Assembly: GCA_044224815.1 (NCBI GenBank)
Contig: JBGAJR010000019.1
Location: 64,001-128,000 of the forward strand
Origin: Polyangiaceae bacterium
GTDB lineage: Bacteria > Myxococcota_A > Polyangia > Polyangiales > Polyangiaceae
DNA: 64,000 nt
Reading direction: 5' to 3'
Below the pieces are notes generated by a model, which saw only the letters and a program-made list of their open reading frames with translations, was not told the origin of the DNA and did no database searches. Shown here one piece after another: positions 8,080 through 55,730 of the stretch (the stretch's first letter is position 1; each line of letters starts with the position of its first letter). Both the position numbers and the translations under genes were made by a program.

Positions 8080-10326
8080 TCACGGGATGCGCGCGCAGCG
8101 GAAGCCGTACGTGAGGTGGCGGCTGCCGAGCGCGTCTCCGCCCGACGTCTGGGTGTCGGTGCGCATCTTCGCCGGAGCGTCGTTGAACGACCCGCCGCGC
8201 GCGTAGAGCTGCGGTGACGGACGCGTCGGAGAGCCCTCCACGCAGTCGACGCAGGTGTTCGCGGGGAACGCGCTGGCGTGGAAGTCGAGCGTCCACTCCG
8301 CGAGGTTCCCCACCAAGTCGAGCTGACCGTACCGACCGCCTCCGAGCGCGGCGACTCCGCCGGGCACCGCGGGCAGCGTTCCCGGACACGCGCCGTCACC
8401 GCTCGCGCAGTACACCGCGTACTGCGGCGAGAGCGTGGCCGTGCCCCACGGGTGGTCGCGCTCGGGCGTTCCTCCCGACGCGGCGTAGTCCCACTCGGTC
8501 GCGCTCGGCAAGAAGCCGCCGTCCCAGATGCAGAATGCATACGCTTCGGCCCACGCGACGCAGTTGATCGCGCGCTGGGGATGGCTCAGGTAAGTCGCGT
8601 TCGCTCCGCCCTCGCAGCTCATCGCCGCCGCCCACGCGGGGAAGTCGCTCGGGATGTTGTTCTCCCAGACTTTGCTCCACCCCTCCTCGTAGTCGGGGGT
8701 CTTGCTGTTCAGTACGACGAGGCCGCTCCCGCCGTTCAGATGAACATGCTTGCCCGCTCCGGCCGCGGGGCGGAATCCAGCGCCGACCCACGCGTCGACG
8801 AACACCTTGAAGCGCGCCGCCGTGACCTCGTACTTGTCGAGCACGAAGCTCGTCACGGTCGAGGGGAACGTGGGATCGCCGAAGCGGTGGAAGCCTGCGC
8901 CGCCGGGCACCTTCGTCGCGGCGCAGCAGCTCTCGCTCTGGCCCGGTCCGCACGTGTCGAAGCCGTTCCCGGTCTGTCCATTGCAGCTCGGCGGCGGCCC
9001 GCACGCGTTGGGGCCGCCCACACCGCAGACTTGGTCGCCGGTGCACGTGTTCGGGCAGTTGATCCAATTGCCGCAGTTGTCGAGCGCGGGGCCGCAGGCC
9101 TTGCCCGTGCAGGCCGCCGCAGCGTTCGACGGGCAGACACAAGCGTACGTGCCGGCGTCGCTGGCGGTGCAAAGCTTTCCTTGCGGCTGACACGTGTCGG
9201 GGCAAATGATCGATTGCCCGCAGTTGTTGATCGCCGTGCCACAGGCCTTTCCGTTGCACGGCGTCAGGTTGTCGGCGACGCACGTGCAGGTGGATGGCGT
9301 GCCCTGGCACGTCTGGTCCGCGGCGCACGCGCCGCAGCTCGTCGATTCGCAGCCGTTGTTGCGATCGGTGGGCACGCACTTGCCGTTGCAAGCTTTGGTA
9401 CCAGGACCGCATGTGCCCACGACGCATGCGCCACCTTGGCAGAGCACGGTGCCGGCGCCCGCGTCGGGACAAGCCGCCGAGTTGCACGAGCTCTCGGTGC
9501 ATCCGTAGGTGGGATCGTTGGTCGCGACGCACTTGCCGTCGCAGAGCTTGTAGCCCGCTCCGCATCCAGAGAGAGTGCAGGCCTTGCCCGCGCCGCAGGT
9601 GAAGGTCGAGTTGGGATCGACCGAGCACGGCGCGCACGCTGCGGATCCGCACCCGTACCTGGGATCGAAGGTGCTCTGGCACGTGTCGGCGCAGCGCTTC
9701 TCGGAGCTGCCGCACGAGAGGCCACCGTCGGAGGGCGCGTCGACCGTGGCATCGGATGCCGCCGCGTCGGGCGGCACTTCGAGCGTGCCTGCGTCGTGCT
9801 CGTCGCCGGGTGAGTATGTGGGCAGGCTCGACGCGTCGACGCGCGACGACACGCAGGATCCGCTCCGCGGATCGCACGTCTCGCCGCCTGGACATCGTGA
9901 CCGCGCGACGTCACCGTCCGCGAATACTTGCGGTGTACAACGACCGCTCAGCACCACCTTCAGCGCGGCGACACGATCGGTGGGGATCTGCTCGACGAGG
10001 TTGTCGCGTCGGTCGAGCGGAACGCCGGCGCGCCAACCGACCACGCTGATTTGCACGGAGGCGGCGGGATTCCCGTTGGACGCGATCGCGAGGGTCGTGG
10101 GGAGCGTGACCTCGGCGGGGAGTCGATAGTCGCTCTTGCGGAGCGACTGACCGTTGGCGGCGATCTCGATCTCCAAGCGATCGAGCGAGAGCGGGCCGTC
10201 CTCCGCGACGATGAGCATGAGCCCACCGAGATCGCGCCCGCGCGTCGTCGAGCAACCGGTCGGGAGCGCGCCCAACGCGATCGCGAGGCCAGCGCAGGCG
10301 TAGGCGAGGCGACGCGTCACAACCAT
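8080..10326 (-). CDS. Lipoprotein with tandem Myxococcus-type cysteine-rich repeats and a C-terminal FGE-sulfatase (SUMF1/DUF323) domain
   Basis: Lipobox LPTGC. Repeated 30-35-aa Cys modules such as CGAGYKLCDGKCV, CGPGTKACNGKCV, TPCNGKACGTAINNCGQSIICPDTC and AACTGKACGPALDNCGNWINCPNTC. The last 250 aa match the FGE fold (YEVTAARF, INCVAWAEAYAFC, RGGSF, GFRCARIP). The final motif SRHLTYGFRCA contains a single Cys. Confidence 0.75.
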   Translation of the reverse strand: MVVTRRLAYACAGLAIALGALPTGCSTTRGRDLGGLMLIVAEDGPLSLDRLEIEIAANGQSLRKSDYRLPAEVTLPTTLAIASNGNPAASVQISVVGWRAGVPLDRRDNLVEQIPTDRVAALKVVLSGRCTPQVFADGDVARSRCPGGETCDPRSGSCVSSRVDASSLPTYSPGDEHDAGTLEVPPDAAASDATVDAPSDGGLSCGSSEKRCADTCQSTFDPRYGCGSAACAPCSVDPNSTFTCGAGKACTLSGCGAGYKLCDGKCVATNDPTYGCTESSCNSAACPDAGAGTVLCQGGACVVGTCGPGTKACNGKCVPTDRNNGCESTSCGACAADQTCQGTPSTCTCVADNLTPCNGKACGTAINNCGQSIICPDTCQPQGKLCTASDAGTYACVCPSNAAAACTGKACGPALDNCGNWINCPNTCTGDQVCGVGGPNACGPPPSCNGQTGNGFDTCGPGQSESCCAATKVPGGAGFHRFGDPTFPSTVTSFVLDKYEVTAARFKVFVDAWVGAGFRPAAGAGKHVHLNGGSGLVVLNSKTPDYEEGWSKVWENNIPSDFPAWAAAMSCEGGANATYLSHPQRAINCVAWAEAYAFCIWDGGFLPSATEWDYAASGGTPERDHPWGTATLSPQYAVYCASGDGACPGTLPAVPGGVAALGGGRYGQLDLVGNLAEWTLDFHASAFPANTCVDCVEGSPTRPSPQLYARGGSFNDAPAKMRTDTQTSGGDALGSRHLTYGFRCARIP

Positions 10327-10375: not shown

Positions 10376-11455
10376 TCAGAACTGGCCGGCTCCGCTCGCG
10401 CCGCATTGGGCGCACGCCGGATCGCTGGGGTTCTTGGCGCACGTCATCGGGCAATACTGGACGCGGTTGAAGACGAGCGGGTTCGTGCCGTCGCCGATCT
10501 CGTCGCAGAGGACGCTCTTCCCGATGACGGTCATCTCGCCGTAGACCGCCGAGCCCGCCATGATCTTGTCGACGCACGCCGAGTTGTTGCTCACCCAACC
10601 TGGGAGCTCGGGGAAGGCCTGGGGAGTGTTCTCTTTGAGGTAGTCGCCTTCGGTGCACACGGTGCCGAGCGAGCAATCACTCGGCGAAGGGTTCTTCGCG
10701 TCGCCGGCCTTGATCGTGTAGCAGAGCTTCAAGTGCCCCGCGCAGTCGACCGTCAGGGTGTTCTTGCTCCACGGCGTGGAAGGCGTCGTGTTGGGCGGCG
10801 GCGTGCCGCCTGCGCAGGTGGCCGACGTCGCGTAGCTCCCGGTGCCGCCTTGCACGAAGCACGGGACGAGGTTGTCGATCTTCCACTGGCCCTGCGAGAA
10901 GCACTTGCACGCTTGCGCGCCCTTGGTCGCGCCCGGCGTCGGGAGCTCGAACCCTTGGCACTTGCCCCACACCTTGCCGAGCTCGCCCTTGGTCTCGCAG
11001 GTGGTCGTACCGTCTTTGCATTGACCGAGATCGCGATTCACGCGCTTGCCCGGCCAGCACGACGCCTTCTCCCCGAGCGTTTTGCACGGGCAGCCCTCTT
11101 TGTTCTTGTCGTCGGGGCAGTCGGGCGTGCCGCCTGGCGGAGCCGGCGCGGGCTTGCCTGCCGGACCACACCACTTCGGCGGCGGGTCGTTGGCCCAGAT
11201 CTGATCGGGCGTGTACGTCTCGTCCTTGGGCGCGACGTCGTCGCCGAAAGTCGGCGCGCCGGCCTCGGCTTGGGCGTTGGCGTTGCTTTGGGGAACGCCG
11301 TCGCGGTCGGTGGAGCTGCACGCCGACGCGGCCGCAGCGATCGCGGCCGCGGTTACGAGCAAGGAGAAGAGGGGCTTTCGCACGGCGAGCACATACCCTG
11401 CCGCGGCCACAAAGCTTCCTCTCGGGTGCCAGTCGACCGTTAAATGCAGATGCAA
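10376..11455 (-). CDS. Cysteine-rich secreted lipoprotein
   Basis: Signal peptide LLVTAAAIAAAASAC. About 30 Cys over 359 aa. Same orientation as the FGE-domain lipoprotein and directly upstream of it. The true start may be an internal GTG. Confidence 0.55.
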   Translation of the reverse strand: MHLHLTVDWHPRGSFVAAAGYVLAVRKPLFSLLVTAAAIAAAASACSSTDRDGVPQSNANAQAEAGAPTFGDDVAPKDETYTPDQIWANDPPPKWCGPAGKPAPAPPGGTPDCPDDKNKEGCPCKTLGEKASCWPGKRVNRDLGQCKDGTTTCETKGELGKVWGKCQGFELPTPGATKGAQACKCFSQGQWKIDNLVPCFVQGGTGSYATSATCAGGTPPPNTTPSTPWSKNTLTVDCAGHLKLCYTIKAGDAKNPSPSDCSLGTVCTEGDYLKENTPQAFPELPGWVSNNSACVDKIMAGSAVYGEMTVIGKSVLCDEIGDGTNPLVFNRVQYCPMTCAKNPSDPACAQCGASGAGQF

Positions 11456-13345
11456 ATGCGGAGCGCCGCCGACTTAGTCCCGAAAAGCGCGCCATGGCGG
11501 CGCGCGGCGTCGGTCGCTGCGGGCGCGCTCGTGCCCGGGCTCGCCGTCGTCGCGTTCGACTTCGTCCTGCGCGGTGCACAGCTCACGCGTTACCGCGCCG
11601 ACCTCTTCCAGTTCTATCTGGGCACCGCGGCGCTCTCGCTCGTGCTCTGGGCAGCGGCGGTGTCGTTCGTCGCGAGCTTGGAGCGCGCCCGCGTGCTCGG
11701 CGTCGCGCTACTCGCGTCCGCCGCGATGCTCGTCGTCGGCAGCCAGATCTACTGTCACGGTCGCTACGGCGCGTATCTGAACCATCGCGCGGCGGCGGTG
11801 GGCATGTCGGTGATGCCCAGCGTGGGCCAGCAGATCTGGACTGATCGCGCGACCGTGGCCACGGCGCTCGGCGCGCCGGCGCTGGTGGTCGTGATCGCTG
11901 CGCTTCTTTCGCTGCGCGCGCGCAGGAAACACGTGCCCGACGCAGGCGCGCTTCGTCGCGCGAGCCGGGACGTGCTCGTCGCGGCCGTCCTCGCGTCGTT
12001 CTTCGCGGCCCCCAAGGGCGGCGATCAGCAATCGGCCACCCCCGACGTGCTCTACATGTCTGCGCTCGGCGAGCTCGCCGCGGCCCGCTGGCGCCACGAG
12101 GTGGACGCCGCGCGCGTGACGCCCGGTCCGCGCCATCCGCTGCCGGTGCCCACGCTGCGCCGCTCCGCGGACGTGCCACCGCGCGACGTCGTCTTCATCG
12201 TCACCGAGTCCGTGCGCGCGAGCGACACCTGCGTCGTTCCCGGTGCGCCCTGCACGACGACGCCGTTCACCGACGCGCTCCTGCCCAAGCGCTACGCCTT
12301 TTCCCAAATGCGCGCGCTCGCCTCGACGACCGCGATCTCCCTCGCGGTCTTGTGGAGCGGCCTCGGCACCGACGCGTCGCGCGAAGCGTTTCACACGATG
12401 CCGCTCGCCTGGGACTACGCCGCCGCGGCTGGCGTCGACGGCGCCTACTTCACGGCGCAGAACCTCTTCTTCGCCAACGCGGGCACTTGGCTCGACGGGA
12501 TCCCGGCTCGGCATCGCGTGAGCGCGACGCAGCTCACGCCGTACTCGACTTACGAGATCGGCGCCGACGAGCGCACTCTCGTGGACTACGTCGTGGCCCA
12601 CGCCGGAGAGCTGCGCTCGCCGTACTTCGCGGTGGTGCACCTATCCAACACGCACGCGCCGTATTTGATCGACCCCGACGACGCGCCGTTCCAGCCGCAG
12701 GTGCTCGGGTTCGGGCCGGGTCCGATCGCGCCCATCCACAACCGCTACAAGGATGCCATCCATCGGCAGGACAAGATCGTGGCGCGCCTCGTGCGCGAGC
12801 TCCGTGCGCGCGGACACGATCGCACGGTGTTCGTGTTCACGTCCGATCACGGCGAGCAGATGCGCGAGCGCGGCGCCCTCACGCACACGACCTCGGTCAT
12901 CGATCCCGAGGTGCGCGTGCCGTTTTGGATCGACGCGCCGCCCGGAACGCTGACCCCCGCCGAGTCGGCGGCGCTCGCGGCGCAGCGAGACACGCCGCGC
13001 ACCATGCTCGACGTGCTCCCGACCCTGCTCGATCTCATGGGCGTGTGGGACGCGCCCGAGATCGCGCCCTTCCGCGGGCGGCTCGCGGGAGCGAGCTTGC
13101 TCCGCGGAGGCTCGGACACGTCCCGTCCGGTGCTGCTCTCGAACTGCAGCGAGCTCTTCGCGTGCGCGTTCAAGAACTGGGGTGCGATCGCGGGAACGAG
13201 GAAGCTCTTGGCGAGCCAGAACGACGCAGCGTGGCAGTGCTACGACATCGCCGCCGATCCCGACGAGACGAGAGACCTCGGCGCGGCTGCGTGCGCCGAC
13301 CTCCGGGCCGTCGCTGAGGGTGGCGGTCGCGGCACTCCGTTTTGA
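11444..13345 (+). CDS. Polytopic membrane protein with a sulfatase/alkaline-phosphatase superfamily domain (LtaS/EptA-like phosphotransferase family)
   Basis: About 5 N-terminal TM helices. The catalytic-domain motifs are DVVFIVTESVRASD, HLSNTHAPY and FTSDHGEQ. There is no C/S-x-P-x-R sulfatase motif, so FGE-type modification is unlikely. Paralog of 22686..24488. Confidence 0.75.
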   Translation: MQMQMRSAADLVPKSAPWRRAASVAAGALVPGLAVVAFDFVLRGAQLTRYRADLFQFYLGTAALSLVLWAAAVSFVASLERARVLGVALLASAAMLVVGSQIYCHGRYGAYLNHRAAAVGMSVMPSVGQQIWTDRATVATALGAPALVVVIAALLSLRARRKHVPDAGALRRASRDVLVAAVLASFFAAPKGGDQQSATPDVLYMSALGELAAARWRHEVDAARVTPGPRHPLPVPTLRRSADVPPRDVVFIVTESVRASDTCVVPGAPCTTTPFTDALLPKRYAFSQMRALASTTAISLAVLWSGLGTDASREAFHTMPLAWDYAAAAGVDGAYFTAQNLFFANAGTWLDGIPARHRVSATQLTPYSTYEIGADERTLVDYVVAHAGELRSPYFAVVHLSNTHAPYLIDPDDAPFQPQVLGFGPGPIAPIHNRYKDAIHRQDKIVARLVRELRARGHDRTVFVFTSDHGEQMRERGALTHTTSVIDPEVRVPFWIDAPPGTLTPAESAALAAQRDTPRTMLDVLPTLLDLMGVWDAPEIAPFRGRLAGASLLRGGSDTSRPVLLSNCSELFACAFKNWGAIAGTRKLLASQNDAAWQCYDIAADPDETRDLGAAACADLRAVAEGGGRGTPF

Positions 13346-22685: not shown

Positions 22686-24488
22686 TCACCGGTTCGGGGC
22701 GCCGCTCGGCAGCGTCTTGAAGTGCGCCTGCGAGAGCGCCCGGAGCGCGTCGCAGCCATCGGCGCCGTGGGAGGCGAGATCGACGCAGCGCCATTCGGGA
22801 TCCCACACTTGCGCCGTCAATACGCGCTGCTCACCGAGCATCCCCCACGCGTTGAGCGGGCAAGGAAAGAGCGCGGTGCAATTGGTGATCGGTATCGGTG
22901 CGATCGGCGTGGGCGAGCCGAGAAGGCTTCGACCGGGGAGCGCTGCGACTTCGGTGCGCAGGCCGAACGCGCCGCGCACGCCATAAACGTCGAGCACCGT
23001 GGGCAATAGATCGAGGTGCGTCACGAGCGCTCGCTCGTAGTCCCGAAGCGCGCGGAGGCCGCGATCGTCCACGCCACCGCCGCGGGTGAGCATCCAGCCC
23101 GGTACGTGGATCTGCTCGTCGTAGAGGTTCTGCCCGTGGTGAATCGCGGAGTGCTCGCCGAACGCCTCGCCGTGATCGCTCGTGTAGGTGACCACGAGCG
23201 GCGTGCCCGAGGCCTCGCTCTTTCGAAACACCGCCCGAAGCACCTCGGCGAGCGCCGCGTCTTGGGCCACGATCGCGTTCTTGTAGGCCGCGTGCAGCTC
23301 GCCGAGCGTGGACCAGCTCACGACTCGCGACCACGGGGCAAACGGCGCCCGCGCCGGGTCGACGTAGTAAGGCGCGTGCGTGCCGGCGAACTGAAGGAAC
23401 AAGAAGAACGGCTGCGGGAGCGCATCGAGATCGCGGAGCGCGCGCTCGGCGAGCTTCCGGTCCACGCCTTCGTCGGTGACCTTGTCGTCGTCGTCGATCG
23501 CGCGCCCGAGCAAGGTCTCCACGCTGATGAAGGAGTCCGCCGCCTTCTGCACGTCGTCGCGTTCGAAGACCGACGCCATCTGCGCGGTCCAGACTGCGAC
23601 GTGGGGCCGAACGCCGTCGGGCCCGCGCACTCGCCGTACGAAGTCGAAGAGCGTGGGCGCAGCGAGCGTGCTCTCGCGGTCGGCCGTTTGCGTGCGGCCG
23701 GTGAGCACGGCGGAGAGAGACACCGCCGTGTAGCTGCTGACCGCGCGCATCTCGCGGAGCGGCAGGCGATCGCGTGTCAGCGCATCCACCTCGCGCATCG
23801 TCTCGCACGGAGTCGCCGTATCGCTCGGTGCGCTGCACGCGTCGCTCGCCCGCACGCTCTCGGTGAGGATGAAGACCACGTTGGGGAGCTTCGGTCCGGT
23901 CGTCGCCACCGGCGTCTCGTCGCGTGCGACGCGCGGCCCCGTCTCCTTCGCCGCATGGTCGAGTCGAGCGCTCGCGAGGTGGAGCGTCGCATCGGCGAGC
24001 GCGATCTCCGGCGTCGCGCGACGCGCGGCCGGGCCGAACGTCAGCCCCACGAGCGTCGCCGCCGCAGCCCCGATCACCGCGCGTGACGGTCGCAGAACGG
24101 GAGCGGCCAAGACGAGCGTGATCTCGGCGGCGAGGCCGGCGGCCACGAGCGCCGCCGCGCGCCCGGGCATCGATGCGAGCACGGAGCGGACGTCGGCCAG
24201 ATTGTGAAGCGCGCTCTCCGCGATCTGGCGATCGACGAAGACGTGCCAGTACCTCGCGAAGGTCGCCTGCGTGACGAACGTCAGCCCGAACAGCACCGCC
24301 GCCGCGACGCGAGCGGTCCGGGGGCGGATCGCGAGGACCAGCGCGCCGACGCCGGCGCTCGCGATCGTGACCAGGGCTCGCTCACCGAGCGAGAGCGAGC
24401 GCGCCGAGCTCAGAAGATCGAGTACGGCGAATTGGAGGACGAAGATCGCCGCGGCACAGGCTCGCGCGATGCGGGCCGTCGGCACCAT
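22686..24488 (-). CDS. Polytopic membrane protein with a sulfatase/alkaline-phosphatase superfamily domain; paralog of 11444..13345
   Basis: N-terminal TM helices. NVVFILTESVRASD, AGTHAPY and YTSDHGEAFGEH match the paralog motif for motif. Confidence 0.75.
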   Translation of the reverse strand: MVPTARIARACAAAIFVLQFAVLDLLSSARSLSLGERALVTIASAGVGALVLAIRPRTARVAAAVLFGLTFVTQATFARYWHVFVDRQIAESALHNLADVRSVLASMPGRAAALVAAGLAAEITLVLAAPVLRPSRAVIGAAAATLVGLTFGPAARRATPEIALADATLHLASARLDHAAKETGPRVARDETPVATTGPKLPNVVFILTESVRASDACSAPSDTATPCETMREVDALTRDRLPLREMRAVSSYTAVSLSAVLTGRTQTADRESTLAAPTLFDFVRRVRGPDGVRPHVAVWTAQMASVFERDDVQKAADSFISVETLLGRAIDDDDKVTDEGVDRKLAERALRDLDALPQPFFLFLQFAGTHAPYYVDPARAPFAPWSRVVSWSTLGELHAAYKNAIVAQDAALAEVLRAVFRKSEASGTPLVVTYTSDHGEAFGEHSAIHHGQNLYDEQIHVPGWMLTRGGGVDDRGLRALRDYERALVTHLDLLPTVLDVYGVRGAFGLRTEVAALPGRSLLGSPTPIAPIPITNCTALFPCPLNAWGMLGEQRVLTAQVWDPEWRCVDLASHGADGCDALRALSQAHFKTLPSGAPNR

Positions 24489-24528
24489 CGGCGGGCGAGG
24501 GGACCGGGTGAAAAACGTCGCCGGTCGG

Positions 24529-24726
24529 TCAGCCGCGCTCGGGCGTGGTGGTGCCCGGCATGTTGCGGATCTCTTTGCGTGCGACCTTCCAGGCGCGCTG
24601 GACGACCCACGAGAGGGACCGGCTCAGGCGGTTCGCCTCGCTCTGCATCTCCGACAGCATCTCGGCCGGAAAGTAGAGGCTTTGCTTGCGCTTGTCGGTG
24701 GTCTTCTGGATCGGCGCGTCGGTCAT
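24529..24726 (-). CDS. Small ribbon-helix-helix (CopG-like) protein of the Myxococcales-restricted type. The likely start is the internal MTDAPIQ.
   Basis: KRKQSLYFPAEMLSEMQSEANRLSRSLSWVVQRAWKVARKEI reads as one beta-strand followed by two helices, the RHH pattern. About 65 aa. Lies 40 bp upstream of the sulfatase-family gene on the same strand. Confidence 0.6.
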   Translation of the reverse strand: MTDAPIQKTTDKRKQSLYFPAEMLSEMQSEANRLSRSLSWVVQRAWKVARKEIRNMPGTTTPERG

Positions 24727-24889
24727 GGCCCGGAGGTTCTCGCACACTTACGGCGAAGTTCAAGGGCTTCGGTCCCAATCGCCCGCTCGCCGGGAAGCGA
24801 GCGGCGCCCGGCGACGGCTGCCCGGCCCCGGACGGCGTGTATGCCGCATGCTTGTGCCGGGACCCGCGATGGGGTGACGATCACTTTTC

Positions 24890-26938
24890 ATGCCCCTTCG
24901 CACCGCGAGCGTCCCGCCGCCCATGGAGGCCGCTTTCGAGAAGGCGGAGGCCCTCGTGTCGGCGTACTTCGCCAAGCGGGTCGACGACCCGTCGCAGGGC
25001 ACGATCGAGATCTCGGGCGAGCGCTACGTGCTCGTGCGCGCCTCGGCGCTGTCGGTGGAGTTCTTCTCGCTCGTCGCCGACCTCTACGGGCCGGGGCGAG
25101 AAGAGGAGGCCGAGCTCTTCGCGCGCAACATCCTCTTCGACCTCGCCCACGCGCTCGGTCGCGCCGACGCGCGCGAGTTCCAGCGCACGACCAAGATCAA
25201 AGAGCCGCTCGATTGCCTGAGCGCGGGCCCCATCGCCTTCGCCCACTCTGGTTGGGCGTACGTGCGCATTCACCCCGAGTCGAACCCGTCGCCTGACGCA
25301 GATTTCGTCCTTTTCTACGATCACCCGTACTCCTTCGAGGCCGAGGCCTGGCTCCGCTCGATGGGGAGAGGCAGCCGCACGCGTCGCGCCAAGGCGCTCC
25401 GTTCGGCCAAGAAGCGCCAGCCGGTGTGCATCATGAACGCCGGCTACTCGTCGGGTTGGTGCGAGGAGAGCTACTCGCTCTCGCTCGTCGCCACGGAGGT
25501 GCTCTGTCGTGCGCGCGGCGACGAGGCGTGTCGATTCATCATGGCGCCGCCGGATCGCATCGAGGCGCACCTCGACCGCTTCATCAAAGGGCGCAAGCGC
25601 ACCCGGGAGCCGCAGCCGGCGCCGCAGATCCCGGACTTTTTCGCGCGAAAGCGCATGGAAGAAGAGCTCCGCAAGGCGCAGGCCGAGCTCGAGCAGCGCG
25701 TGCGTGACCGCACCCAAGAGCTCCTCCGCGCGAACGAGCTCCTGAAGCGACAGATGATGGAGCGCGAGAAGATCGCCAAGCAGCTCCGTCAAGCGCACAA
25801 GCTCGAGGCCATCGGCCGCCTGTCGGGCGGCATCGCGCACGACTTCAACAACCTGCTCGCGATCTTCATGACGCGCGGCGGCCTTCTGCAACGTCGCCTC
25901 AAGCATTCGCTCGCCGAGGGCGATCCGGCGCTCGTCGATCTCTCGGAGATGCTCCGGGCCGGTGAGCGCGCGGCGGCGCTCACCGCGCAGCTCCTCGCGT
26001 TCAGTCGTGGTCAGGTGTTGGCTCGCGAGCGCATCGACTTCAACGTGGTCGCTCGCGAGCTCGCCAAGACGCTCGTGCCGCTCATCGGCGCCGACATCGA
26101 GCTCGACCTCGACATCGAGTCCGGACCGGCGCCGATCCGCGCCGATCGCGGCCAGATCGAGCAGGTCATCATGAACCTGGTGGTCAACGCGCGCGACGCG
26201 ATGCCCACCGGAGGCACGCTCGGGTTTTCGACCGGGATCGTGAACGTCGGTCGCGACTTCCGCACCCTCACCGGTGAGCTCCGGCCGCGCCGCTACGTCG
26301 TCCTCTCCATCACCGACTCCGGCATGGGCATGGACGAAGAGACGCAGAGCAAGATGTTCGATCCCTTCTTCACCACCAAGCCGGAAGGAAAAGGAACGGG
26401 CCTCGGTCTCGCGACGGTCTACGGCATCGTGCAGCAGTGCGACGGTGGCATCGTCGTGGAAAGTACGCCGGAGGCCGGCACGACGTTTCGCGTTTACCTT
26501 CCCGTCGACGGGGACGGCATCTCCCCTTCGGCCGCGGCTCCGCGGAGCTCCCGCGAGGTCGACACCGGCAGCGAGACGCTCCTTCTCGTGGAGGACGAGG
26601 CCGAGCTCCGGAGCGCCGTCGCCGAAGTCCTCTCCGACTGCGGCTACCACGTGGTGGCGACGCCGGGTCCGCTCGAGGCGTTGAAGCTCCTCGAGGAGCC
26701 GGATCGGCACATCGACGTCCTCGTGACCGATCTCGTCATGCCAAAGATGGGCGGCGTGGAGCTGGCGCGACGTGTCCTCTCCGCGCGCCCCGACGTGCGC
26801 GTGCTCTTCGTCTCGGGCTACGCCCCCGAGGGCGCGGAGCGCGAGACCATGCTCGTCGACAAGCGGGCGGCGTTCCTCGCCAAGCCGTTCCAGCCCGACG
26901 AGCTCTCACGCAAGCTGCGAAACCTCCTCGATCGCTGA
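24890..26938 (+). CDS. Hybrid sensor histidine kinase: N-terminal V4R-like ligand-binding domain, HisKA, HATPase, C-terminal receiver
   Basis: V4R-like region [19 protein letters not shown]...[16 protein letters not shown]-box [13 protein letters not shown]1 and G2 boxes ([22 protein letters not shown]). Receiver LLLVEDE...LVTDLVMP. Confidence 0.85.
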
Positions 26939-27019
26939 GCGGCTGCGCGCGAAAATCGTTCGCGATCGATCAGGCGCGGGCCCGTGGCGGGCCGTGGTGC
27001 TTGCGATATCTTCGCGCTC

Positions 27020-28846
27020 ATGGCGCAGGCGTTCGACGTCGTCGTGTTGGGTGGAGGCATCGCGGGGGCGTTCCTCGCGCGGCACTTGAAGATCGCGCAC
27101 CCCGAGCTCTCGGTGCTCGTGCTCGAAGCCAAAGAGACCATCGACGACTTCAAGGTCGGCGAGTCGACGGTCGAGGTAGCTGCAAACTACATGATTCGTC
27201 GACTGCAGCTGTCGACGTACCTGTACCAACACCAGCTCCCCAAAAATGGCCTCCGCTTCTTCTTCGACGACGAAGCGAAGGACCTCCCGCTCACCGAGAT
27301 GAGCGAGATCGGCTCGTCGCGGTTCCCGCACGTGCCGAGCTTCCAGCTCGAGCGCGCCGCGCTGGAGCGCGATCTCGTGTCTCTCAACCGCGCCATCGGC
27401 GTCGACGTGCGGCTCGGGGCGAAGGTCACGGGTGTGTCGCTCACGACCGGCGGCACGGCCCCGCACGCGATCACCTTCGAGCAAGGCGGGGAGACGTTCT
27501 CGGTGACGGCGCGCTGGGCCGTCGATGCGACCGGCCGACGGCACGTCATCAACCGCGCCATCGGGGCCAAGGTCCACAAGGAGACGCGCCTCAACACCGC
27601 GGCGGCGTGGGCGCGCTACCGGAACGTGGCCGGCCTCGACGCCGTGCAGGATCCGGCGTGGCGCGGGCGGGTGCGGTGGACGTCGCGGCACCTCTCGACG
27701 AACCACATGATGTACGACGGCTACTGGATCTGGTTCATCCCGCTGGCCGGCGATTTGATGAGCGTGGGCGCGGTCTACGACAAGGACCGCATCGGAGACA
27801 CGATTCGGAAGCGAGAGCCCTTCGAGGAGTTCTTGCGGTCGCATCGATCGTCGCGAGATCTCATGGAGGGCGCCGAATTCGTCGATTTTCAGGCGTTCGC
27901 GCACCTCCCGTATCACTCCGACAAGTTCTTCTCCGAGGACCGCTGGGCGCTCACCGGCGAGGCGGGCGCATTCGTCGACCCGTTCTACAGCCCGGGCTCG
28001 GACTTCATCGCCACCGCCAACGAGTTCATCGTCTCGATGATCGAGAGCGAGCTCGCGGGCGACACGGCCACGTTCGAGAAGAAGGTGGGCGCGTACAACG
28101 CCTACTACCGCTTCAAGTACGAGCTCACGCTGCGCCTCTACGCGAAGCTCTACCCGATCTTCGGAAGCTACGAGGTCTTCCGCCTCAAGTTCCTGCTCGA
28201 CTTCAACAACTACTACAACGTGGTCGTGTGGCCGTTCATGAACGATCGGCTGCGCGACGTCGATTGGATCATCGAGGACCTGCGCCTCGCCGATCGCGTG
28301 GTCGAGGCGCAGTCGAACATGGCCGATCAGCTCGTGGCCATGGCCGATCACCTCCGCGGACGCGGGGAGTACTTCGGCCAGAACCGCGGCCGCTACGCCG
28401 ACGGTTTGTGGGGCGTGAGCCAGTTCGAGAAGCGGCTCACCCAGCCCATCGACTCCGAGTTCCGCAAGATGCAGCTCCAGAAGTGCTACGGGAGCACCTT
28501 CGCCAGCATCCTCGCGCGCATCACCGGCGAGGACGTCGCCGAGAAGGAGCTCGTGCTCTCGGCCATCGATTTTCCGACGGTGACGCTGATGAAGCGCATC
28601 GACGACGCGAGCTACGAGAAGCTGATCGGTCGCATCGAGCAGCGCATGAAGAAGGATCTCCTCCGCGCCTTCCCCGGTGCGCCGCTCGAACGCGTGTCGC
28701 TCGCCAAGCAGGGCGACACAGGGCATCGCGCGCCCACGGTCGTGGGCGGCATGGACCCGGAGCTCCTCCGCATGGTCGAGGCCCGCGCGAACGAGATGTG
28801 GACCGCGCGCGGCGAGTCGCTCGCGCACGTCACCGTCACCGACTGA
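27020..28846 (+). CDS. Flavin-dependent halogenase (tryptophan-halogenase family). The track ORF starts 36 bp upstream.
   Basis: FAD GxGxxG motif VVVLGGGIAGAF. Halogenase signature WxWxIP (GYWIWFIPL). Second signature FxxPxxSxG (FVDPFYSPGSDF). Candidate catalytic Lys in QLPKNGLRFFF. About 150-aa C-terminal extension. Confidence 0.8.
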   Translation: MAQAFDVVVLGGGIAGAFLARHLKIAHPELSVLVLEAKETIDDFKVGESTVEVAANYMIRRLQLSTYLYQHQLPKNGLRFFFDDEAKDLPLTEMSEIGSSRFPHVPSFQLERAALERDLVSLNRAIGVDVRLGAKVTGVSLTTGGTAPHAITFEQGGETFSVTARWAVDATGRRHVINRAIGAKVHKETRLNTAAAWARYRNVAGLDAVQDPAWRGRVRWTSRHLSTNHMMYDGYWIWFIPLAGDLMSVGAVYDKDRIGDTIRKREPFEEFLRSHRSSRDLMEGAEFVDFQAFAHLPYHSDKFFSEDRWALTGEAGAFVDPFYSPGSDFIATANEFIVSMIESELAGDTATFEKKVGAYNAYYRFKYELTLRLYAKLYPIFGSYEVFRLKFLLDFNNYYNVVVWPFMNDRLRDVDWIIEDLRLADRVVEAQSNMADQLVAMADHLRGRGEYFGQNRGRYADGLWGVSQFEKRLTQPIDSEFRKMQLQKCYGSTFASILARITGEDVAEKELVLSAIDFPTVTLMKRIDDASYEKLIGRIEQRMKKDLLRAFPGAPLERVSLAKQGDTGHRAPTVVGGMDPELLRMVEARANEMWTARGESLAHVTVTD

Positions 28847-28855
28847 CCGGCCGCG

Positions 28856-29560
28856 TCAGTCGCACGCGTGCGAAGGTCCCGGCGTGGCGATGCAGCCGCC
28901 GCTCACGTAGGCCAGGGGATTCGACGGGGGCTCGTAGCCGCCGTCGGGGAGCGCCGTCTTGGGCACGCAGCACGCTTCTCCGTTCGGACAATCGGCGCGC
29001 GTGTGACACAGGAGCTCGGCCCCCGCGTCGGGGCTCGTGACGCAGCCGACGCGGACCTTGGGCGCTCGGGTCAGGACGACGCACCCTTGGCCGAGCGCGC
29101 AGTCTTCGGGGCCGTCGCAAGCCGAGACGCTGAAGCAGCTCGAGACGTCGGCGTCGGCGCCGAGGCACTGGGCCGGCGCGCCGATCGATTCGCAGCAGTC
29201 GAGGGGAGCGGCGCAGGTGATCTGTCCAGTGCTCGCATCGAGGAGCAGGGAACGGCAGCGTGCGCCTGGCGTGGCGGGCGTGAAGACGAACCCGCTGTCC
29301 GTGACGAACGGCGCGTCGGGCACGCCGGGACCGGCGTCGGCGATCGCGTCGACGGAGGGCGCGTCGGAGGGGCCCGCGTCGGACGGGGCCGCGACGTCTT
29401 CGGTCGCGGCGAGCGCGTCGCCGGGCGGGCCGCTCTCCACGTTCGGCGCGCCGTCCGCGCCCACCGGACTCGTCGCTGCCGTGTCGTCGCTGCACGCTGC
29501 CACCATCGCCGCGCCGGTGACCGCCGCTCCCACGATCAAGAAGGCTGCCCGTCGACTCAT
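28856..29560 (-). CDS. Cysteine-rich secreted lipoprotein. The likely start is the internal MSRRAAFLIVGAAVTGAAMVAAC.
   Basis: Lipobox MVAAC. Cys-rich C-terminal half (CAAPLDCCESIGAPAQC, CPNGEACC). Its start overlaps the upstream gene's stop (ATGA). Confidence 0.55.
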   Translation of the reverse strand: MSRRAAFLIVGAAVTGAAMVAACSDDTAATSPVGADGAPNVESGPPGDALAATEDVAAPSDAGPSDAPSVDAIADAGPGVPDAPFVTDSGFVFTPATPGARCRSLLLDASTGQITCAAPLDCCESIGAPAQCLGADADVSSCFSVSACDGPEDCALGQGCVVLTRAPKVRVGCVTSPDAGAELLCHTRADCPNGEACCVPKTALPDGGYEPPSNPLAYVSGGCIATPGPSHACD

Positions 29561-30582
29561 CGCAGTTCTCTCCTTCGTGCCACGTCCGCGACGAGTGCGC
29601 GCGCGCGCTCGCCGATGATGTTCGCGTGCGCGATCAGCGCATCGACCGCCGTGAGCGCTGCAGGCGATCCTGCCGCGAGGAGCGCGAGCGCGAGCACGTG
29701 CGCCTCCTCGGCCGCCTTGGGTTTCAGCACCGGCGCTGCGGTGAGCCGACCCAAGCTCGCCGCGACCTTGGCGACGAGCGCCTCGTCGTCGGGGCGCGCC
29801 GCGACGCGGGTGGCCCACGCCAGCGGCGTCTCGACGTTCTCGAGTCGCTCGAGCGTCGCGCGTGGCGCGCGCCGTCCAGCCGCGATCGCGAGGACCGCGC
29901 CGCCGCGATCCGCCATGCGCAAGAGCGCATCAGCGTCGATCGCCTCGACCTCGGCGGCGCGCCACAGCCAGCGGCGGAGGAGGTCGGGGCCGGCCGCGCT
30001 GCACCACCAAGGCACGCCGCGGTAGGCAGCGACGATCGCGCGATCGGTCTCGGCGTCGTGTGTCGCGATCATCGCCTCCAGCGCGACGTCTCCCGGGTAC
30101 GCGCGCTCGGTGCCGGCGTCCTCGTCCTCGGCCTCGTCGGCGAGGAACGCCGCGAAGTCGGCGTAGCGCACGCGCTCGCCCTCTTCGATCTCGATCACCG
30201 CGCCGGTGGCGCGCTCGATCGCCACCACGTGATCGGCGCCCGTGGCGAGCCCGACGACGAAGACGTCGGCCGGCAAGTCGTCGCGCGTCGCCGGACGCGC
30301 CAGCGCGCTCGTCACGTCGCGGGCGCACCACAGATCGAGCACCGGCGTCAGCGTCGGCCAGCCGTCGTGCGCGGTCAGGAAGGCGCGATAGGCGACGGGG
30401 ATGGACCCGCCGAGCGCGCCGGCCAGCGCGGCCAGATCACGCGCTGGCGCACCGGCCGGCGGCGCCGCCGGCGCGTCCTCCTTGGTCAAGCGGGCGAGGG
30501 TCGCCTGCGCGCGCGCTCGCGCCGCCACCGCGCGTTCGACGCGCGCGAAGACGGCGTGGTCGGTCTCAGTGGGGCGGGCCAC
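29557..30582 (-). CDS. Hypothetical protein, possibly SUKH/SMI1-KNR4-like
   Basis: 341 aa. The region IPVAYRAFLTAHDGWPTL...VFVVGLATGADHVVAIERATGAVIEIEEGE resembles the SUKH fold (weak). Lies in the hmgA-hppD transcription unit. Confidence 0.45.
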   Translation of the reverse strand: MARPTETDHAVFARVERAVAARARAQATLARLTKEDAPAAPPAGAPARDLAALAGALGGSIPVAYRAFLTAHDGWPTLTPVLDLWCARDVTSALARPATRDDLPADVFVVGLATGADHVVAIERATGAVIEIEEGERVRYADFAAFLADEAEDEDAGTERAYPGDVALEAMIATHDAETDRAIVAAYRGVPWWCSAAGPDLLRRWLWRAAEVEAIDADALLRMADRGGAVLAIAAGRRAPRATLERLENVETPLAWATRVAARPDDEALVAKVAASLGRLTAAPVLKPKAAEEAHVLALALLAAGSPAALTAVDALIAHANIIGERARALVADVARRRELR

Positions 30583-30594
30583 GCCCCCAATCTA

Positions 30595-31680
30595 TCAGCG
30601 CGCGTCGAAGACGCCGCGCTTCGCTTGGTCGCGTTCGATCGAGCGGAAGAGCGCCGTAAAATTCCCCTCACCGAAGGAGAGGTGGTTCTTGCGCTGAATG
30701 AGCTCGATGAAGATCGGGCCCACCAGGTTCTTGGTGAAGATCTGAAGCAAGTAGCCCTGCTCGTCGCCGTCGACGAGCACGTTGCGCTTCTGAATCTCCG
30801 TGTGGTCCTCGGTCACGGCGGGGAGGCGCGCGAAGACGTCCTTGTAGTAGTCGTCGTCGATGTCGAGGAACGCGATCGGCGAGCCCTCGAGCCCGCGCAG
30901 CGACGCGAGGATGTCGTCCGTCAGGAACGCCAGGTGCTGAATGCCCGGGCCCTTGTACTCCTCGAGGTATTCGTTGATTTGGCTCTTGGCCTCGTCGGCC
31001 TCGTTGATCGGGATCGCGAACGAGCCGTCGGGCGAGCGAAGCGCGTAGGACGTGAGCCCGGTCTTCACGCCGCGGATATCGAAATAGCGAACCTCGGTGA
31101 AGCCGAAGACGTTCTTGTAGAAGTCCGCCCAGCGCTTCATCGTCCCCTTCTCGACGTTGTTCGTCAGATGGTCGACGGCGAGGAAGCCCTTGTCGGCCAC
31201 GCGATCGGGCCGATCGAGCGGCACGAAGCCGAGGGTTCCGTAGAGGCGCGCCGCGTCCTCGACGACGCCGGCGCGGCCCTCGATGAACGTGATGAGGCTG
31301 TCACCGATGCCGTAGATGGCGGGGAGCGCCGAAGCCACGCCCGAGATCGGACGGGTGAGGTCGCCCTCCATCATCGGGCGAGCGCCGCGCGCGCGCGCCG
31401 CGCCGAGCGCGCGGACCGGATCCTCGACCTTCCAGCCCATCGAGCAGATCGACGGGCCGTGCTTCTTGGCGAACGACTCGGCGAAGCTCCGCGGCTCACG
31501 GTTCAGGAGGAACCGAATGCCGTTCTGTTCGTAGAGGTCGATGTTCTTCTGCGCGTGCCGCATGGTGCGTGAGAAGCCGAACGCCAAGAAGAGACGGTGG
31601 AGCGCGTCGGGATCGGGCGACGCGAACTCGACGTACTCGATGCCGCAAAGCCCACACGGGTTCTTCTCGTTCGCGCTCAT
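30595..31680 (-). CDS. hppD: 4-hydroxyphenylpyruvate dioxygenase
   Basis: Two VOC modules. Fe-binding His/Glu environment GIQHLAF and IQKRNVLVDGDEQGYLLQIFT. C-terminal EGNFTALFRSIERDQ. The start MSANEK overlaps the hmgA stop by 4 bp. Confidence 0.9.
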   Translation of the reverse strand: MSANEKNPCGLCGIEYVEFASPDPDALHRLFLAFGFSRTMRHAQKNIDLYEQNGIRFLLNREPRSFAESFAKKHGPSICSMGWKVEDPVRALGAARARGARPMMEGDLTRPISGVASALPAIYGIGDSLITFIEGRAGVVEDAARLYGTLGFVPLDRPDRVADKGFLAVDHLTNNVEKGTMKRWADFYKNVFGFTEVRYFDIRGVKTGLTSYALRSPDGSFAIPINEADEAKSQINEYLEEYKGPGIQHLAFLTDDILASLRGLEGSPIAFLDIDDDYYKDVFARLPAVTEDHTEIQKRNVLVDGDEQGYLLQIFTKNLVGPIFIELIQRKNHLSFGEGNFTALFRSIERDQAKRGVFDAR

Positions 31681-32807
31681 TTCGCACCCCAGCTCTTCCA
31701 GTAGTCGTTCATCTCGAGGGTCTTCGCGTCGTCGGCCACGAAGAGCGGGCGCTTGGTGTCGATCATCACTGCCACCTCGCTCGTCGCCTTGGCGCCAGCG
31801 GCGCGCTCGACGGCCTTGCCCTGCGGGCCGTGATGAATGCCTTGCGGGTGGAACGTCATCATCCCGGCGCCGATGCCGGCGCGGCTGAAGAACTCGCCCG
31901 CGTGGTAGAAGAGCACCTCGTCGAAGTCGATGTTCGAGTGGAAGAACGGAACCTTCATCGCGCGGGGGTCGCCGTTCTCGAGCGGACGCGGCGCGAAGGT
32001 GCACACGACGACGTTGTGCGCGACGAACGTGGAGTGCGCCGACGGCGGGAGGTGATAGCGGTCCGAGCTCACCGGGCGAATGTCCTTCACCGCGAGCTTC
32101 TGCACCGTGAGCGTGCCCTTCCAGCCGATCGTGTTGAGCGGGCAGAAGGGATAGAAGACGCTCGTCGTCTCGCCGCAGCGTTGCACGCGGAGCTCCCACT
32201 CGCCGTTCGTCGCCGAGAGCGATGACGTCTCTCCGGGCGTCGGCACTTGCACGACGGCCGGATCGAAGAGCGCGTGCTGGCCGAGCATCCCGCGATCGGG
32301 GACCGCGAGCTCGCTCATGGTCTCGACGCAGAGGAGCGCCGTCTTGCTGGTCGGCGCGAAGCGGTAGACCGTGCCGCGCGGGACGAGGAGATAGTCGCCC
32401 GGCTCGTAGGTGAGGGGACCGAAGTCGGTCTCGAGGCGCCCCGCGCCGGCGTGGACGAAGAAGAGGTCGTCGGCGTCCGCGTTGCGGAAGTAGTAGGGCA
32501 TCTCGCGATCGAGGGTCGCGAGCTGGACGCGCACGTCGTCGTTGTAGAGGACGGTCTTGCGGGCCGCGGCGAGGTCGCCGCCGGCGGCCGCCGCCTCGAA
32601 GGCGCGGTTCCCGTCGTAAGCGCGCGGGCGGAGCGGCCCTTCGATCCGGGTCCAACCCACCGGGGCCTCGCGCCGGTACAAGTGCGCGTAACGGCCGAAG
32701 AAACCGTTGCGGGCGTACTCCTCCTCGACGGTGCCTTCGGGAACTGCAACGTGGGCTTGGAGCGCGACTTTGCCGCGAACGTAGGGGACGTCCATGCGCC
32801 CAGGCAT
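31677..32807 (-). CDS. hmgA: Homogentisate 1,2-dioxygenase
   Basis: Cupin HGD family: YLLVPRGTVYRF, FHSNIDFDEVLFYHAGEF, MTFHPQGIHHGPQ. About 375 aa. The start is at 32807 (MPGRM) or 32795 (MDVPY). Confidence 0.9.
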   Translation of the reverse strand: MPGRMDVPYVRGKVALQAHVAVPEGTVEEEYARNGFFGRYAHLYRREAPVGWTRIEGPLRPRAYDGNRAFEAAAAGGDLAAARKTVLYNDDVRVQLATLDREMPYYFRNADADDLFFVHAGAGRLETDFGPLTYEPGDYLLVPRGTVYRFAPTSKTALLCVETMSELAVPDRGMLGQHALFDPAVVQVPTPGETSSLSATNGEWELRVQRCGETTSVFYPFCPLNTIGWKGTLTVQKLAVKDIRPVSSDRYHLPPSAHSTFVAHNVVVCTFAPRPLENGDPRAMKVPFFHSNIDFDEVLFYHAGEFFSRAGIGAGMMTFHPQGIHHGPQGKAVERAAGAKATSEVAVMIDTKRPLFVADDAKTLEMNDYWKSWGAK

Positions 32808-32882: not shown

Positions 32883-33767
32883 ATGCACGTCACCCTGGAG
32901 CAAGCCCGCGCGCTCGACGCCCTCGCCAAGACCGGCACCTTCGTGAAGGCCGCCGCGCTCCTCAAGAAGCGGCACACCGCGGTGGTCTACGCCGTGCGAA
33001 CGCTCGAAGAGCAGACGAGCTTGGTTCTCCTCGATCGCACTGGGTACCGCACCAAGCTCACCGCCGAGGGCGCGGGCGTGCTCGAGGCGTGTCGCGGTCT
33101 CCTCGACGCCGAAGCGGCGCTCGTACGCTCGTGCCACGAGCTCAAGACCGGATGGGAGCCATCGCTCCGCATCGTGTTCGACGGCATCTGCGCCGCCGAC
33201 CCGATCCTGCAGGTCGTGGCGGCGCTCGTTCGCGAAGGTGCGCCCACGCGCGTCGACGTCGAGGTCGAGTTCTTGACCGGCGTCGAGCGCGCGTTCGTCG
33301 AGCAAGACGCGGACGTGATGATCGGCGTGCTCGCGCCCACACTTCGTGGCCTCCGCTCCTCCGAGCTCCCGCCCATTCGCGCGCGGCTCGTGGCTCACCG
33401 CGATCACCCGCTCGCCAAGCGCGGCGCGCGTCCCACGCCCGCCGAGCTCGCGTCGCACGTGCTCGTCACCGTGCGCGGCTCCGATCCTCGCCTCGCGCTC
33501 CCCACCGCCGGCCTCGAGCAGCGGACGCGCGTTCGCCTCAGTGACTTCTCGGCCAAGAAGGCGGCGCTGATGAGCGGCGTCGGCTTCGGTTGGATGCCCG
33601 AGCACCTCGTCAGGACCGAGCTTCGCCGCGGCCTCCTCCGCGAGATCCGCACCCCGGAGAGTGTTCATGTGTTCCGTCCGCGCCTCTATGTGCGCGAAGG
33701 GAGGAAGCTCGGACGGGCTGGTACGCGACTCGCGGCGGCCCTCCGAGCGCCGCGGTCCTCGGACTGA
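32883..33767 (+). CDS. LysR-family transcriptional regulator
   Basis: N-terminal winged HTH LDALAKTGTFVKAAALLKKRHTAVVYAVRTLEEQ. C-terminal LysR substrate-binding domain. Divergent from hmgA. Confidence 0.85.
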   Translation: MHVTLEQARALDALAKTGTFVKAAALLKKRHTAVVYAVRTLEEQTSLVLLDRTGYRTKLTAEGAGVLEACRGLLDAEAALVRSCHELKTGWEPSLRIVFDGICAADPILQVVAALVREGAPTRVDVEVEFLTGVERAFVEQDADVMIGVLAPTLRGLRSSELPPIRARLVAHRDHPLAKRGARPTPAELASHVLVTVRGSDPRLALPTAGLEQRTRVRLSDFSAKKAALMSGVGFGWMPEHLVRTELRRGLLREIRTPESVHVFRPRLYVREGRKLGRAGTRLAAALRAPRSSD

Positions 33768-55683: not shown

Positions 55684-55730
55684 CTTACGAAGCTCGCGCC
55701 AAGGCGCGAGCGGGGAAGGGAAGAAGCACG

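Follow-up and report, generated by a model that had tools for sequence, protein, structure and literature searches.

A stand-alone flavin-dependent halogenase of Polyangiaceae, related to aryl-polyene cluster halogenases, beside a hybrid sensor kinase

The halogenase gene and its product

The stretch of DNA analysed here, hereafter the window, comprises 64 kb of a Polyangiaceae bacterium contig (JBGAJR010000019.1, positions 64,001 to 128,000, assembly GCA_044224815.1); its G+C content is ~70%, and real genes were picked out by means of their codon-position G+C. It contains a gene for a flavin-dependent halogenase (FDH) that follows, on the same strand, a gene for a predicted hybrid histidine kinase. 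A previous inspection of the letters and open reading frames (ORFs), below called the sequence-only reading, had suggested that these two genes, together with tyrosine-catabolic genes downstream, serve the sensing and halogenation of an aromatic or phenolic small molecule. The ORFs at 24890-26938 and 27020-28846 are both real genes, and their features are as follows (labels such as L003 denote loci carrying a related FDH).

24890..26938, + strand: hybrid histidine kinase, 682 amino acids (aa) (Pfam; NCBIfam; orthologues in L003, L085 and L088)
24986..25543, + strand: XylR_N plus V4R sensor module, residues 33-218 (Pfam; MopR match)
25832..25852, + strand: H-box IAHDFNN, region of the phospho-accepting His (direct reading; within the CckA-type match)
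26144..26509, + strand: HATPase_c, residues 419-540 (Pfam, 76.1 bits)
26582..26917, + strand: C-terminal receiver (REC), residues 565-676 (Pfam Response_reg, 62.4 bits)
26939..27019, + strand: kinase-FDH spacer of 81 bp with two short GC-rich inverted repeats (sequence; spacer alignment)
27020..28846, + strand: FDH, 608 aa (Pfam, NCBIfam, solved relatives, alignments, model)
27050-27067, GGGIAG; 27236-27250, LPKNG with Lys75; 27725-27742, WIWFIP; 27971-27997, FVDPFYSPG; 28199-28219, family signature DFNNYYN (motif positions in the FDH gene)
28337..28843, + strand: clade-specific C-terminal region of the FDH, residues 440-608 (representative-protein search; model)

The product of the second gene matches the Pfam model Trp_halogenase with 53.7 bits (cutoff 21), its best NCBIfam model is that of CmlS, and its closest solved relatives by sequence are all FDHs, namely CmlS (4e-20), FasV (8e-17), CndH (1e-15), PltA and ChlB4. 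The signatures GxGxxG, WxWxIP and FxxPxxSxG, on which the sequence-only reading had based its assignment, are all present where it had placed them, and are invariant in a 16-sequence alignment of the family: GGGIAG spans residues 11-16 with G11, G13 and G16 unchanged, W236-I-W-F-I-P241 retains W236, W238, I240 and P241 throughout, and F318-VDPFYSPG326 is constant at its motif positions. In FDHs the WxWxIP motif is reported to keep the substrate away from the flavin. Lys75 (LPK75NG) falls in the same alignment column as the conserved Lys in CmlS (VKK) and CndH (PiKRGG), which we take to be the catalytic lysine (PrnA K79, CmlS K71, CndH K76); this residue, whose presence had been left to an alignment, is thus retained in the window and invariant in the 16 sequences. 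Lys75, WxWxIP and FxxPxxSxG are also at least 90% conserved among 68 wider relatives plus three solved FDHs. An AlphaFold model built from the 16-sequence alignment has a mean predicted local distance difference test score (pLDDT) of 79.4 and a predicted template modelling score (pTM) of 0.81. A Foldseek comparison with the PDB ranked CmlS, PltM, FasV, CtcP, PltA, ChlB4, RadH, Bmp2, CndH and Mpy16 highest, and the 41 best matches are halogenases, except for 3nix, a structural-genomics flavoprotein with no assigned function.

The FDH relatives all start 2-5 residues ahead of the FDVVV strand (FDVVVLGGG), and for this reason ATG 27020 is the most likely start; GTG 26984 was considered and rejected as 12 codons too early.

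The extra C-terminal extension described in the sequence-only reading is real, and the search of representative proteins identifies the last 169 aa as clade-specific: they gave 16 matches among 1.84 billion such proteins. One of these is a full-length protein of 610 aa that is matched at its C-terminus, and the others, 86-358 aa long and with N-termini unchecked, are read as probable fragments of the same FDH family. Residues 440-608 are modelled by AlphaFold as a small alpha/beta domain, with pLDDT mostly 77-94 at residues 481-600 and 52-58 at residues 461-480.

Relatives of the halogenase and their gene neighbourhoods

A homolog search of 5.8 billion proteins gave >4,400 matches, the best 120 of which are described here. 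All 120 are full-length proteins of ~600 aa that are 57-86% identical to the window FDH, apart from one identical sequence; the named sources are Sorangium (~20 named strains or species), Chondromyces apiculatus, Polyangium aurulentum, Pendulispora and metagenome-assembled genomes (MAGs) of Polyangiaceae. Their annotations read only 'NAD(P)/FAD-dependent oxidoreductase' or 'tryptophan 7-halogenase'. The window FDH is a member of a ~600-aa Polyangiaceae-type clade and not an isolated oddity.

Species-representative genomes contain at least 549 relatives of the FDH, and the best 80 were taken with 10-kb flanks; ORFs from all loci, called crudely, were clustered by all-against-all BLASTP, and their co-occurrence was counted. 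In the 16 loci of the ~600-aa clade (the window and L001-L015), no aryl-polyene genes lie beside the FDH within the flanks of up to 10 kb on each side, several contigs being shorter, and its neighbours there include nothing else of a biosynthetic kind. The order pilMNOPQ, LysR, a 450-aa protein, FDH is common to Sorangium, Chondromyces and a Polyangiaceae MAG and counts toward vertical inheritance. The neighbours of the FDH differ in Pendulispora and in the closest relatives of the window, and no partner gene conserved beside the FDH is common to the window's lineage, Pendulispora and Sorangium.

The ~450-aa protein (L002 8589-9992; also L005-L010) ends 9 bp before the FDH gene in Sorangium, Chondromyces and the Polyangiaceae MAG. 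It has no match in Pfam or NCBIfam, its FHALTDG motif recalls the HHxxxDG of acyltransferase/condensation enzymes, and no homolog of it is encoded in the window.

Among the same best 80 of the at least 549 loci, relatives at 35-46% identity occur in Nitrospirales, Planctomycetota, other Myxococcota, Variovorax/Burkholderiales, Acidobacteria and Bacteroidota; the relatives linked to aryl-polyene genes are 510-565 aa long, and their alignment with the window FDH ends at residue 414-512. A ketosynthase (KS) homolog is present in 49 of the 80 loci and a protein like the chain-length factor (CLF; Ketoacyl-synt_2, PF13723) in 34, while an AMP-ligase, an MMPL exporter, a LolA-like protein, a lipid A-type acyltransferase, a ketoreductase and a family 2 glycosyltransferase (GT2) each recur in 13-21 loci, often adjoining the FDH. 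This recurring set is that of a xanthomonadin-type aryl-polyene cluster. The same genes have been reported for the xanthomonadin and arcuflavin clusters, in which a halogenase gene lies beside the KS/CLF pair (ORF16/ORF17) in Xanthomonas and Variovorax, and is named arcA in Azoarcus sp. BH72 (PMC3691225, PMC3949708). The function of these cluster-linked halogenase genes was itself inferred from the existence of brominated xanthomonadins (PMC3691225).

A neighbour-joining tree was calculated from 385 core columns with 100 bootstraps, using aligned fragments of CmlS, CndH and FasV as outgroups. The Polyangiaceae clade is monophyletic with a bootstrap value of 100, its grouping with the aryl-polyene-linked FDHs of Nitrospirales, Planctomycetota and Myxococcota has a value of 93, and the whole FDH family is separated from CmlS/CndH/FasV with a value of 87. 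The Polyangiaceae clade thus appears to nest inside an aryl-polyene-linked FDH family and, by parsimony, would descend from a cluster-embedded halogenase that later became detached. The placement in a phylogeny that had been called for to check the halogenase bears out its membership in the FDH subfamily of these clusters. Its nearest non-orphan relatives lie in aryl-polyene clusters, which would give the gene a conventional evolutionary origin, a point that the sequence-only reading had missed.

There is no biosynthetic cluster in the 64-kb window. Among the predicted genes scanned with Pfam across the window (all except a few small ORFs), no polyketide synthase (PKS), nonribosomal peptide synthetase (NRPS), carrier-protein or flavin-reductase family was found, and the earlier remark that none of these adjoins the halogenase therefore holds. 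Flavin reductases are often encoded at a distance from FDH genes. A tblastn search of the window with eight conserved neighbour families of the aryl-polyene loci hit only a generic FadD11-like acyl-CoA ligase (55680-57521), 27 kb away.

The sensor kinase and the surrounding genes

The product of the upstream gene is, to judge by its translation, a cytoplasmic hybrid histidine kinase of 682 aa, with no predicted membrane segment and with the order sensor, coiled coil, H-box, ATPase, receiver. XylR_N scores 23.7 bits at residues 33-127 (Pfam cutoff 23) and V4R 29.8 bits at residues 174-218, just below its cutoff of 31; the Pfam HisKA model gives no score on the protein, and residues 288-681 match CckA-type kinases (NCBIfam, E=6e-103). 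A single-sequence search with the sensor detected MopR with E=5e-4 and with the Cys/Glu/Cys/Cys columns aligned. A profile of 25 homologous sensor modules matched MopR (5kbe) over the whole domain with E=8e-12, PoxR with 3e-6 and DmpR/CapR with 9e-5, so that the same-strand hybrid kinase with a V4R-type module recognized in the sequence-only reading is confirmed by Pfam and by the profile match.

The putative zinc ligands Cys180, Glu203, Cys206 and Cys214 fall in the Cys/Glu/Cys/Cys columns of MopR; in the alignment of sensor homologs the first three do not vary, and C214 is nearly invariant. His106 and Trp134 of MopR, which we take to be its phenol contacts, correspond to Phe117 and His145 in the window sensor, both of which are invariant in the sensor family. 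Because these contacts are replaced, phenol should not be assumed to be the ligand, and a phenol ligand by analogy with XylR/DmpR is not supported. Sensor modules 46-62% identical to that of the window occur across Myxococcota, Planctomycetota, Acidobacteriota, Patescibacteria, Omnitrophota and archaeal MAGs (proteins P0121-P0240), either stand-alone or fused to PAS, HisKA or GerE; a module fused to so many outputs across phyla is not specific to halogenases. The module has invariant residues of its own, H145, P146, F149, E150 and W154. Its conservation across phyla suggests one common ligand.

Whether the kinase gene accompanies the FDH gene in relatives is listed below, with the identity of each FDH to that of the window.

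L003: FDH 83%; kinase upstream, 64% identical over the part present
L085-87: FDH 78%; full kinase upstream, 69% identical
L088: FDH 84%; C-terminus of the kinase upstream, 70% identical
L004: FDH 86%; first 69 kinase codons only, then an unrelated gene
JGI contig: FDH 79%; no kinase; the FDH is directly preceded by a small divergent gene
Pendulispora and a related contig (L001, L089): FDH 63%; no kinase upstream
Sorangium (L002): FDH 60%; no kinase upstream
Other clade loci, including Chondromyces L010: FDH 56-59%; no kinase homolog clustered beside the FDH

Adjacency is confined to FDHs of 78% or higher identity to that of the window and occurs in four lineages besides the window itself. The spacers between the two genes measure 44-123 bp among the relatives, and neither their sequence nor their length is conserved. 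A consensus scan of 24400-30700 found no promoter-like site, and the two terminator-like sites in the same interval, both on the minus strand within the kinase gene, do not exceed the number obtained with shuffled sequences. The pair is kept only as synteny among close relatives; a regulatory coupling of kinase and FDH is possible in the window's lineage, and would not be a family-wide property.

The remnant in L004 (3175-3381), the closest NCBI relative, comprises 69 codons 75% identical to the kinase, followed by an unrelated secreted-type protein of 246 aa; its origin is either a join made during MAG assembly or a recent replacement of the gene. The aryl-polyene loci of Variovorax run in the order KS, CLF, FDH, 240-aa ORF, HAMP histidine kinase, and stop codons there overlap start codons (L084 7941-13610; also L055, L062, L065, L068, L069 and L079). 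The 240-aa ORF resembles a response regulator in size and position only, its family not having been scanned. In these loci, members of this FDH family are found a second time, and independently, beside two-component signalling genes.

The other genes around the pair are the following.

24529..24726, - strand: TIGR04563-family protein, 65 aa, divergent from the kinase (NCBIfam 102.4 bits, cutoff 65)
28856..29560, - strand: Cys-rich lipoprotein (MSRRAAFLIVGAAVTGAAMVAACSDD...), convergent with the FDH (translation; codon-position GC)
29557..30582, - strand: weakly SUKH/SMI1-like protein (Pfam SMI1_KNR4, E=0.006, below cutoff)
30595..31680, - strand: hppD, 4-hydroxyphenylpyruvate dioxygenase (TIGR01263 351.7 bits, cutoff 277)
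31677..32807, - strand: hmgA-like cupin (TIGR01015 55.2 bits, cutoff 510.75; Pfam HgmA_N 35.2 bits, partial)
32883..33767, + strand: LysR-type regulator, divergent from the hmgA-like gene (Pfam HTH_1 and LysR_substrate)

The hmgA-like, hppD, SUKH-like and lipoprotein genes form a tightly packed minus-strand set convergent with the FDH. The lipoprotein stop codon is 10 bp away from that of the FDH, its start is overlapped for 4 bp by the stop of the SUKH-like gene, and the hmgA-like gene overlaps the start of hppD by 4 bp and is translationally coupled to it. The lipoprotein has no family match in Pfam or NCBIfam and, as far as can be seen, lies outside the halogenase function. Thus the tyrosine-catabolic hmgA-hppD unit, said earlier to lie directly downstream of the halogenase, is in fact set apart from it by the lipoprotein and SUKH-like genes. 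As to its identity, the hppD assignment is solid as a prediction from family scores, while hmgA is weak: its product is a divergent cupin that may not be a standard homogentisate dioxygenase.

In L003 and L004, the FDH is followed by a shared downstream block without the stretch corresponding to 28.85-38.05 kb; the block resumes at ~38.05 kb in the window and begins 1.6-2.8 kb after the FDH in the two relatives. This 9-kb segment contains the lipoprotein, SUKH-like, hppD, hmgA-like and LysR genes, a Ser/Thr kinase, a TPR protein and an unassigned gene. It is missing from both related contigs compared, and the juxtaposition gives no evidence for a functional link between the FDH and tyrosine catabolism; a link of hppD/hmgA to the FDH was rejected, the segment not being syntenic in L003 and L004, and the hppD/hmgA-like operon is probably an unrelated neighbour.

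A small minus-strand gene at the position of 24529-24726 is also found in L004, L085 and the JGI contig, whether the kinase is present or not, its similarity having been compared for L004 only. To our knowledge the TIGR04563 family is limited to myxobacteria. A 16-kb part of the window encodes two sulfatases that are paralogs of each other (11444-13345, +; 22686-24488, -), together with a maturase of the FGE type, a protein with an FGE-sulfatase domain (8080-10326, -). Elsewhere, the window encodes PrmC, phosphoglucomutase, UvrD, a PMT-type glycosyltransferase, an aquaporin, a Ser/Thr kinase, cytochrome c, a bactofilin-homologous stretch, the FadD11-like ligase and pyrroline-5-carboxylate (P5C) reductase.

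Possible role and comparison with known systems

We consider that the window most probably encodes a genuine FDH, a stand-alone, clade-specific offshoot of the aryl-polyene halogenases that probably acts on a hydroxyaryl substrate made elsewhere, and put the probability of this reading at about 0.6. The enzyme would be a two-component, FADH2-dependent FDH of the PF04820 family and of the phenol/pyrrole type, like CmlS, CndH and PltA. By the mechanism of the family, a separate flavin reductase would supply reduced flavin, which with O2 and halide would yield hypohalous acid, and Lys75 would guide the latter to an electron-rich aromatic carbon of the substrate. The lineage may have started as a tailoring halogenase of aryl polyenes and then become physically detached from its cluster, while the enzyme would still halogenate a hydroxyaryl substrate, either free or attached to a carrier or lipid, whose synthesis is encoded elsewhere in the genome. 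The upstream MopR-type kinase would be a lineage-restricted neighbour that may regulate the FDH in a genus-level group, outside the conserved system.

Several points weigh against this reading. The activity, substrate and halide preference of the FDH are predictions, and the pLDDT of the model is <50 at residues 70-77, around Lys75. The relatives were gathered through two exact peptide patterns, as the best 80 of at least 549, and the tree is distance-based, with only fragments of three solved FDHs as outgroups. We know of no aryl-polyene cluster halogenase that has been characterised biochemically, and the analogy with these enzymes therefore rests on annotation and context. Furthermore, the kinase-FDH pair persists in the four lineages besides the window though the kinase has diverged to 64-70% identity, which leaves room for a real regulatory link.

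The FDH may have done no more than change its place: an aryl-polyene cluster elsewhere in the genome would still have its aryl head brominated or chlorinated by the detached enzyme, in trans. We regard this as somewhat unlikely. It would agree with the nesting of the clade among aryl-polyene-linked FDHs and with the retention in the window FDH of the catalytic motifs, FYSPGSDF and DFNNYYN; moreover, such clusters are known in at least one Polyangiaceae genome, that of Minicystis rosea, for which two have been reported (PMC8436480). However, the clade has gained a different, clade-specific C-terminal domain, and when the CLF of a Polyangiales MAG was used as query, none of the 192 proteins found was named as Sorangium, Chondromyces, Polyangium or Pendulispora, although the FDH search had returned ~25 proteins from named genomes of these genera. 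This CLF search was word-seeded and of limited sensitivity, and only about one-quarter of its proteins are named, so that the negative is a weak one, which would be compatible either with tailoring in trans or with a new role. Such a new role could be that of a Polyangiaceae-wide, vertically inherited and cluster-independent FDH with a core physiological task, for example the halogenation of a membrane-associated aryl lipid or a phenolic signal, in which the C-terminal domain would replace the carrier-protein or cluster context of the aryl-polyene ancestors and the cytoplasmic MopR-like sensor kinase would exert control in the window's lineage. A core role of this kind is the only reading with real novelty, and we think it improbable.

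The model of the sequence-only reading, in which sensing of an aromatic or phenolic compound by the MopR-like kinase would turn on an FDH tied to tyrosine catabolism, for instance to halogenate a phenol derived from tyrosine, seems to us distinctly improbable. The two genes do share a strand and are separated by 81 bp without a terminator-like site, the sensor is homologous to phenol sensors and keeps their zinc site, the gene order is retained in L003, L085-87 and L088, and the Variovorax loci independently have a regulator-sized ORF and a HAMP kinase right after the FDH. Yet adjacency is wanting in L004 (where a remnant persists), the 79% identical relative, Pendulispora, Sorangium and the other clade loci, and the block of sulfatase, small gene, kinase and FDH is plain synteny of close relatives. 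The sensor module is spread over many phyla and outputs, the phenol-contact positions of MopR are not conserved in it, and the hybrid kinase lacks an output that binds DNA, with neither a cognate Hpt protein nor a regulator adjoining it. In addition, hppD and the hmgA-like gene lie two genes off on the opposite strand, in the 9-kb segment missing from L003 and L004. What endures of that proposal is an FDH outside a classical cluster and an upstream kinase with a XylR/DmpR-type sensor; that sensing, halogenation and tyrosine catabolism form one unit is not supported. It is very improbable that the FDH scaffold serves in vivo as a flavin monooxygenase or as a protein or peptide modifier like LodB, GoxB and QhpG; the best sequence matches here are halogenases, and the lysine and both halogenase motifs are unvaried in the clade alignment and nearly so in the wider family.

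As it stands, the locus is an ordinary FDH beside an ordinary, if uncommon, sensor kinase, and opens no long-standing question. If the clade is active, a whole family known for its rich output of natural products would conserve a halogenase to which no known halogenated product belongs; this would point to an overlooked halometabolite, and the enzyme would be a biocatalyst candidate for use on phenolic substrates. [quoted passage not shown]

The sensor of the window kinase has the XylR_N plus V4R architecture and the zinc ligands in common with MopR, PoxR and DmpR, but their output is an AAA+ sigma-54 activator, in contrast to the H-box, HATPase_c and REC of the window kinase. With the NtrC-family activators XylR and DmpR it likewise shares the sensor alone, the sigma-54 AAA+ and HTH output being absent. 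Kinase core and receiver are like those of cytoplasmic hybrid kinases of the CckA type, from which the window kinase differs in scoring far below the equivalog cutoffs (345 vs 1000) and in its N-terminal sensor; a cell-cycle role is not implied. The halogenases of aryl-polyene clusters belong by sequence to the same FDH subfamily, with 35-46% identity over residues 1-414 to 1-512 and with FYSPGSDF and DFNNYYN as common signatures. Unlike them, the window FDH is not accompanied by KS, CLF, AMP-ligase, MMPL, LolA or acyltransferase genes in 64 kb; it is also ~50-90 residues longer, and its C-terminal domain has no detectable homolog among them. The best matches in both sequence and structure are the solved phenol/pyrrole/alkyl-type FDHs CmlS (3i3l), CndH (3e1t), PltA (5dbj), ChlB4 (7fco) and FasV (8zop), in which the lysine, WxWxIP and FxxPxxSxG align with those of the window FDH, and, as in CmlS, the window FDH carries a large extra C-terminal region.

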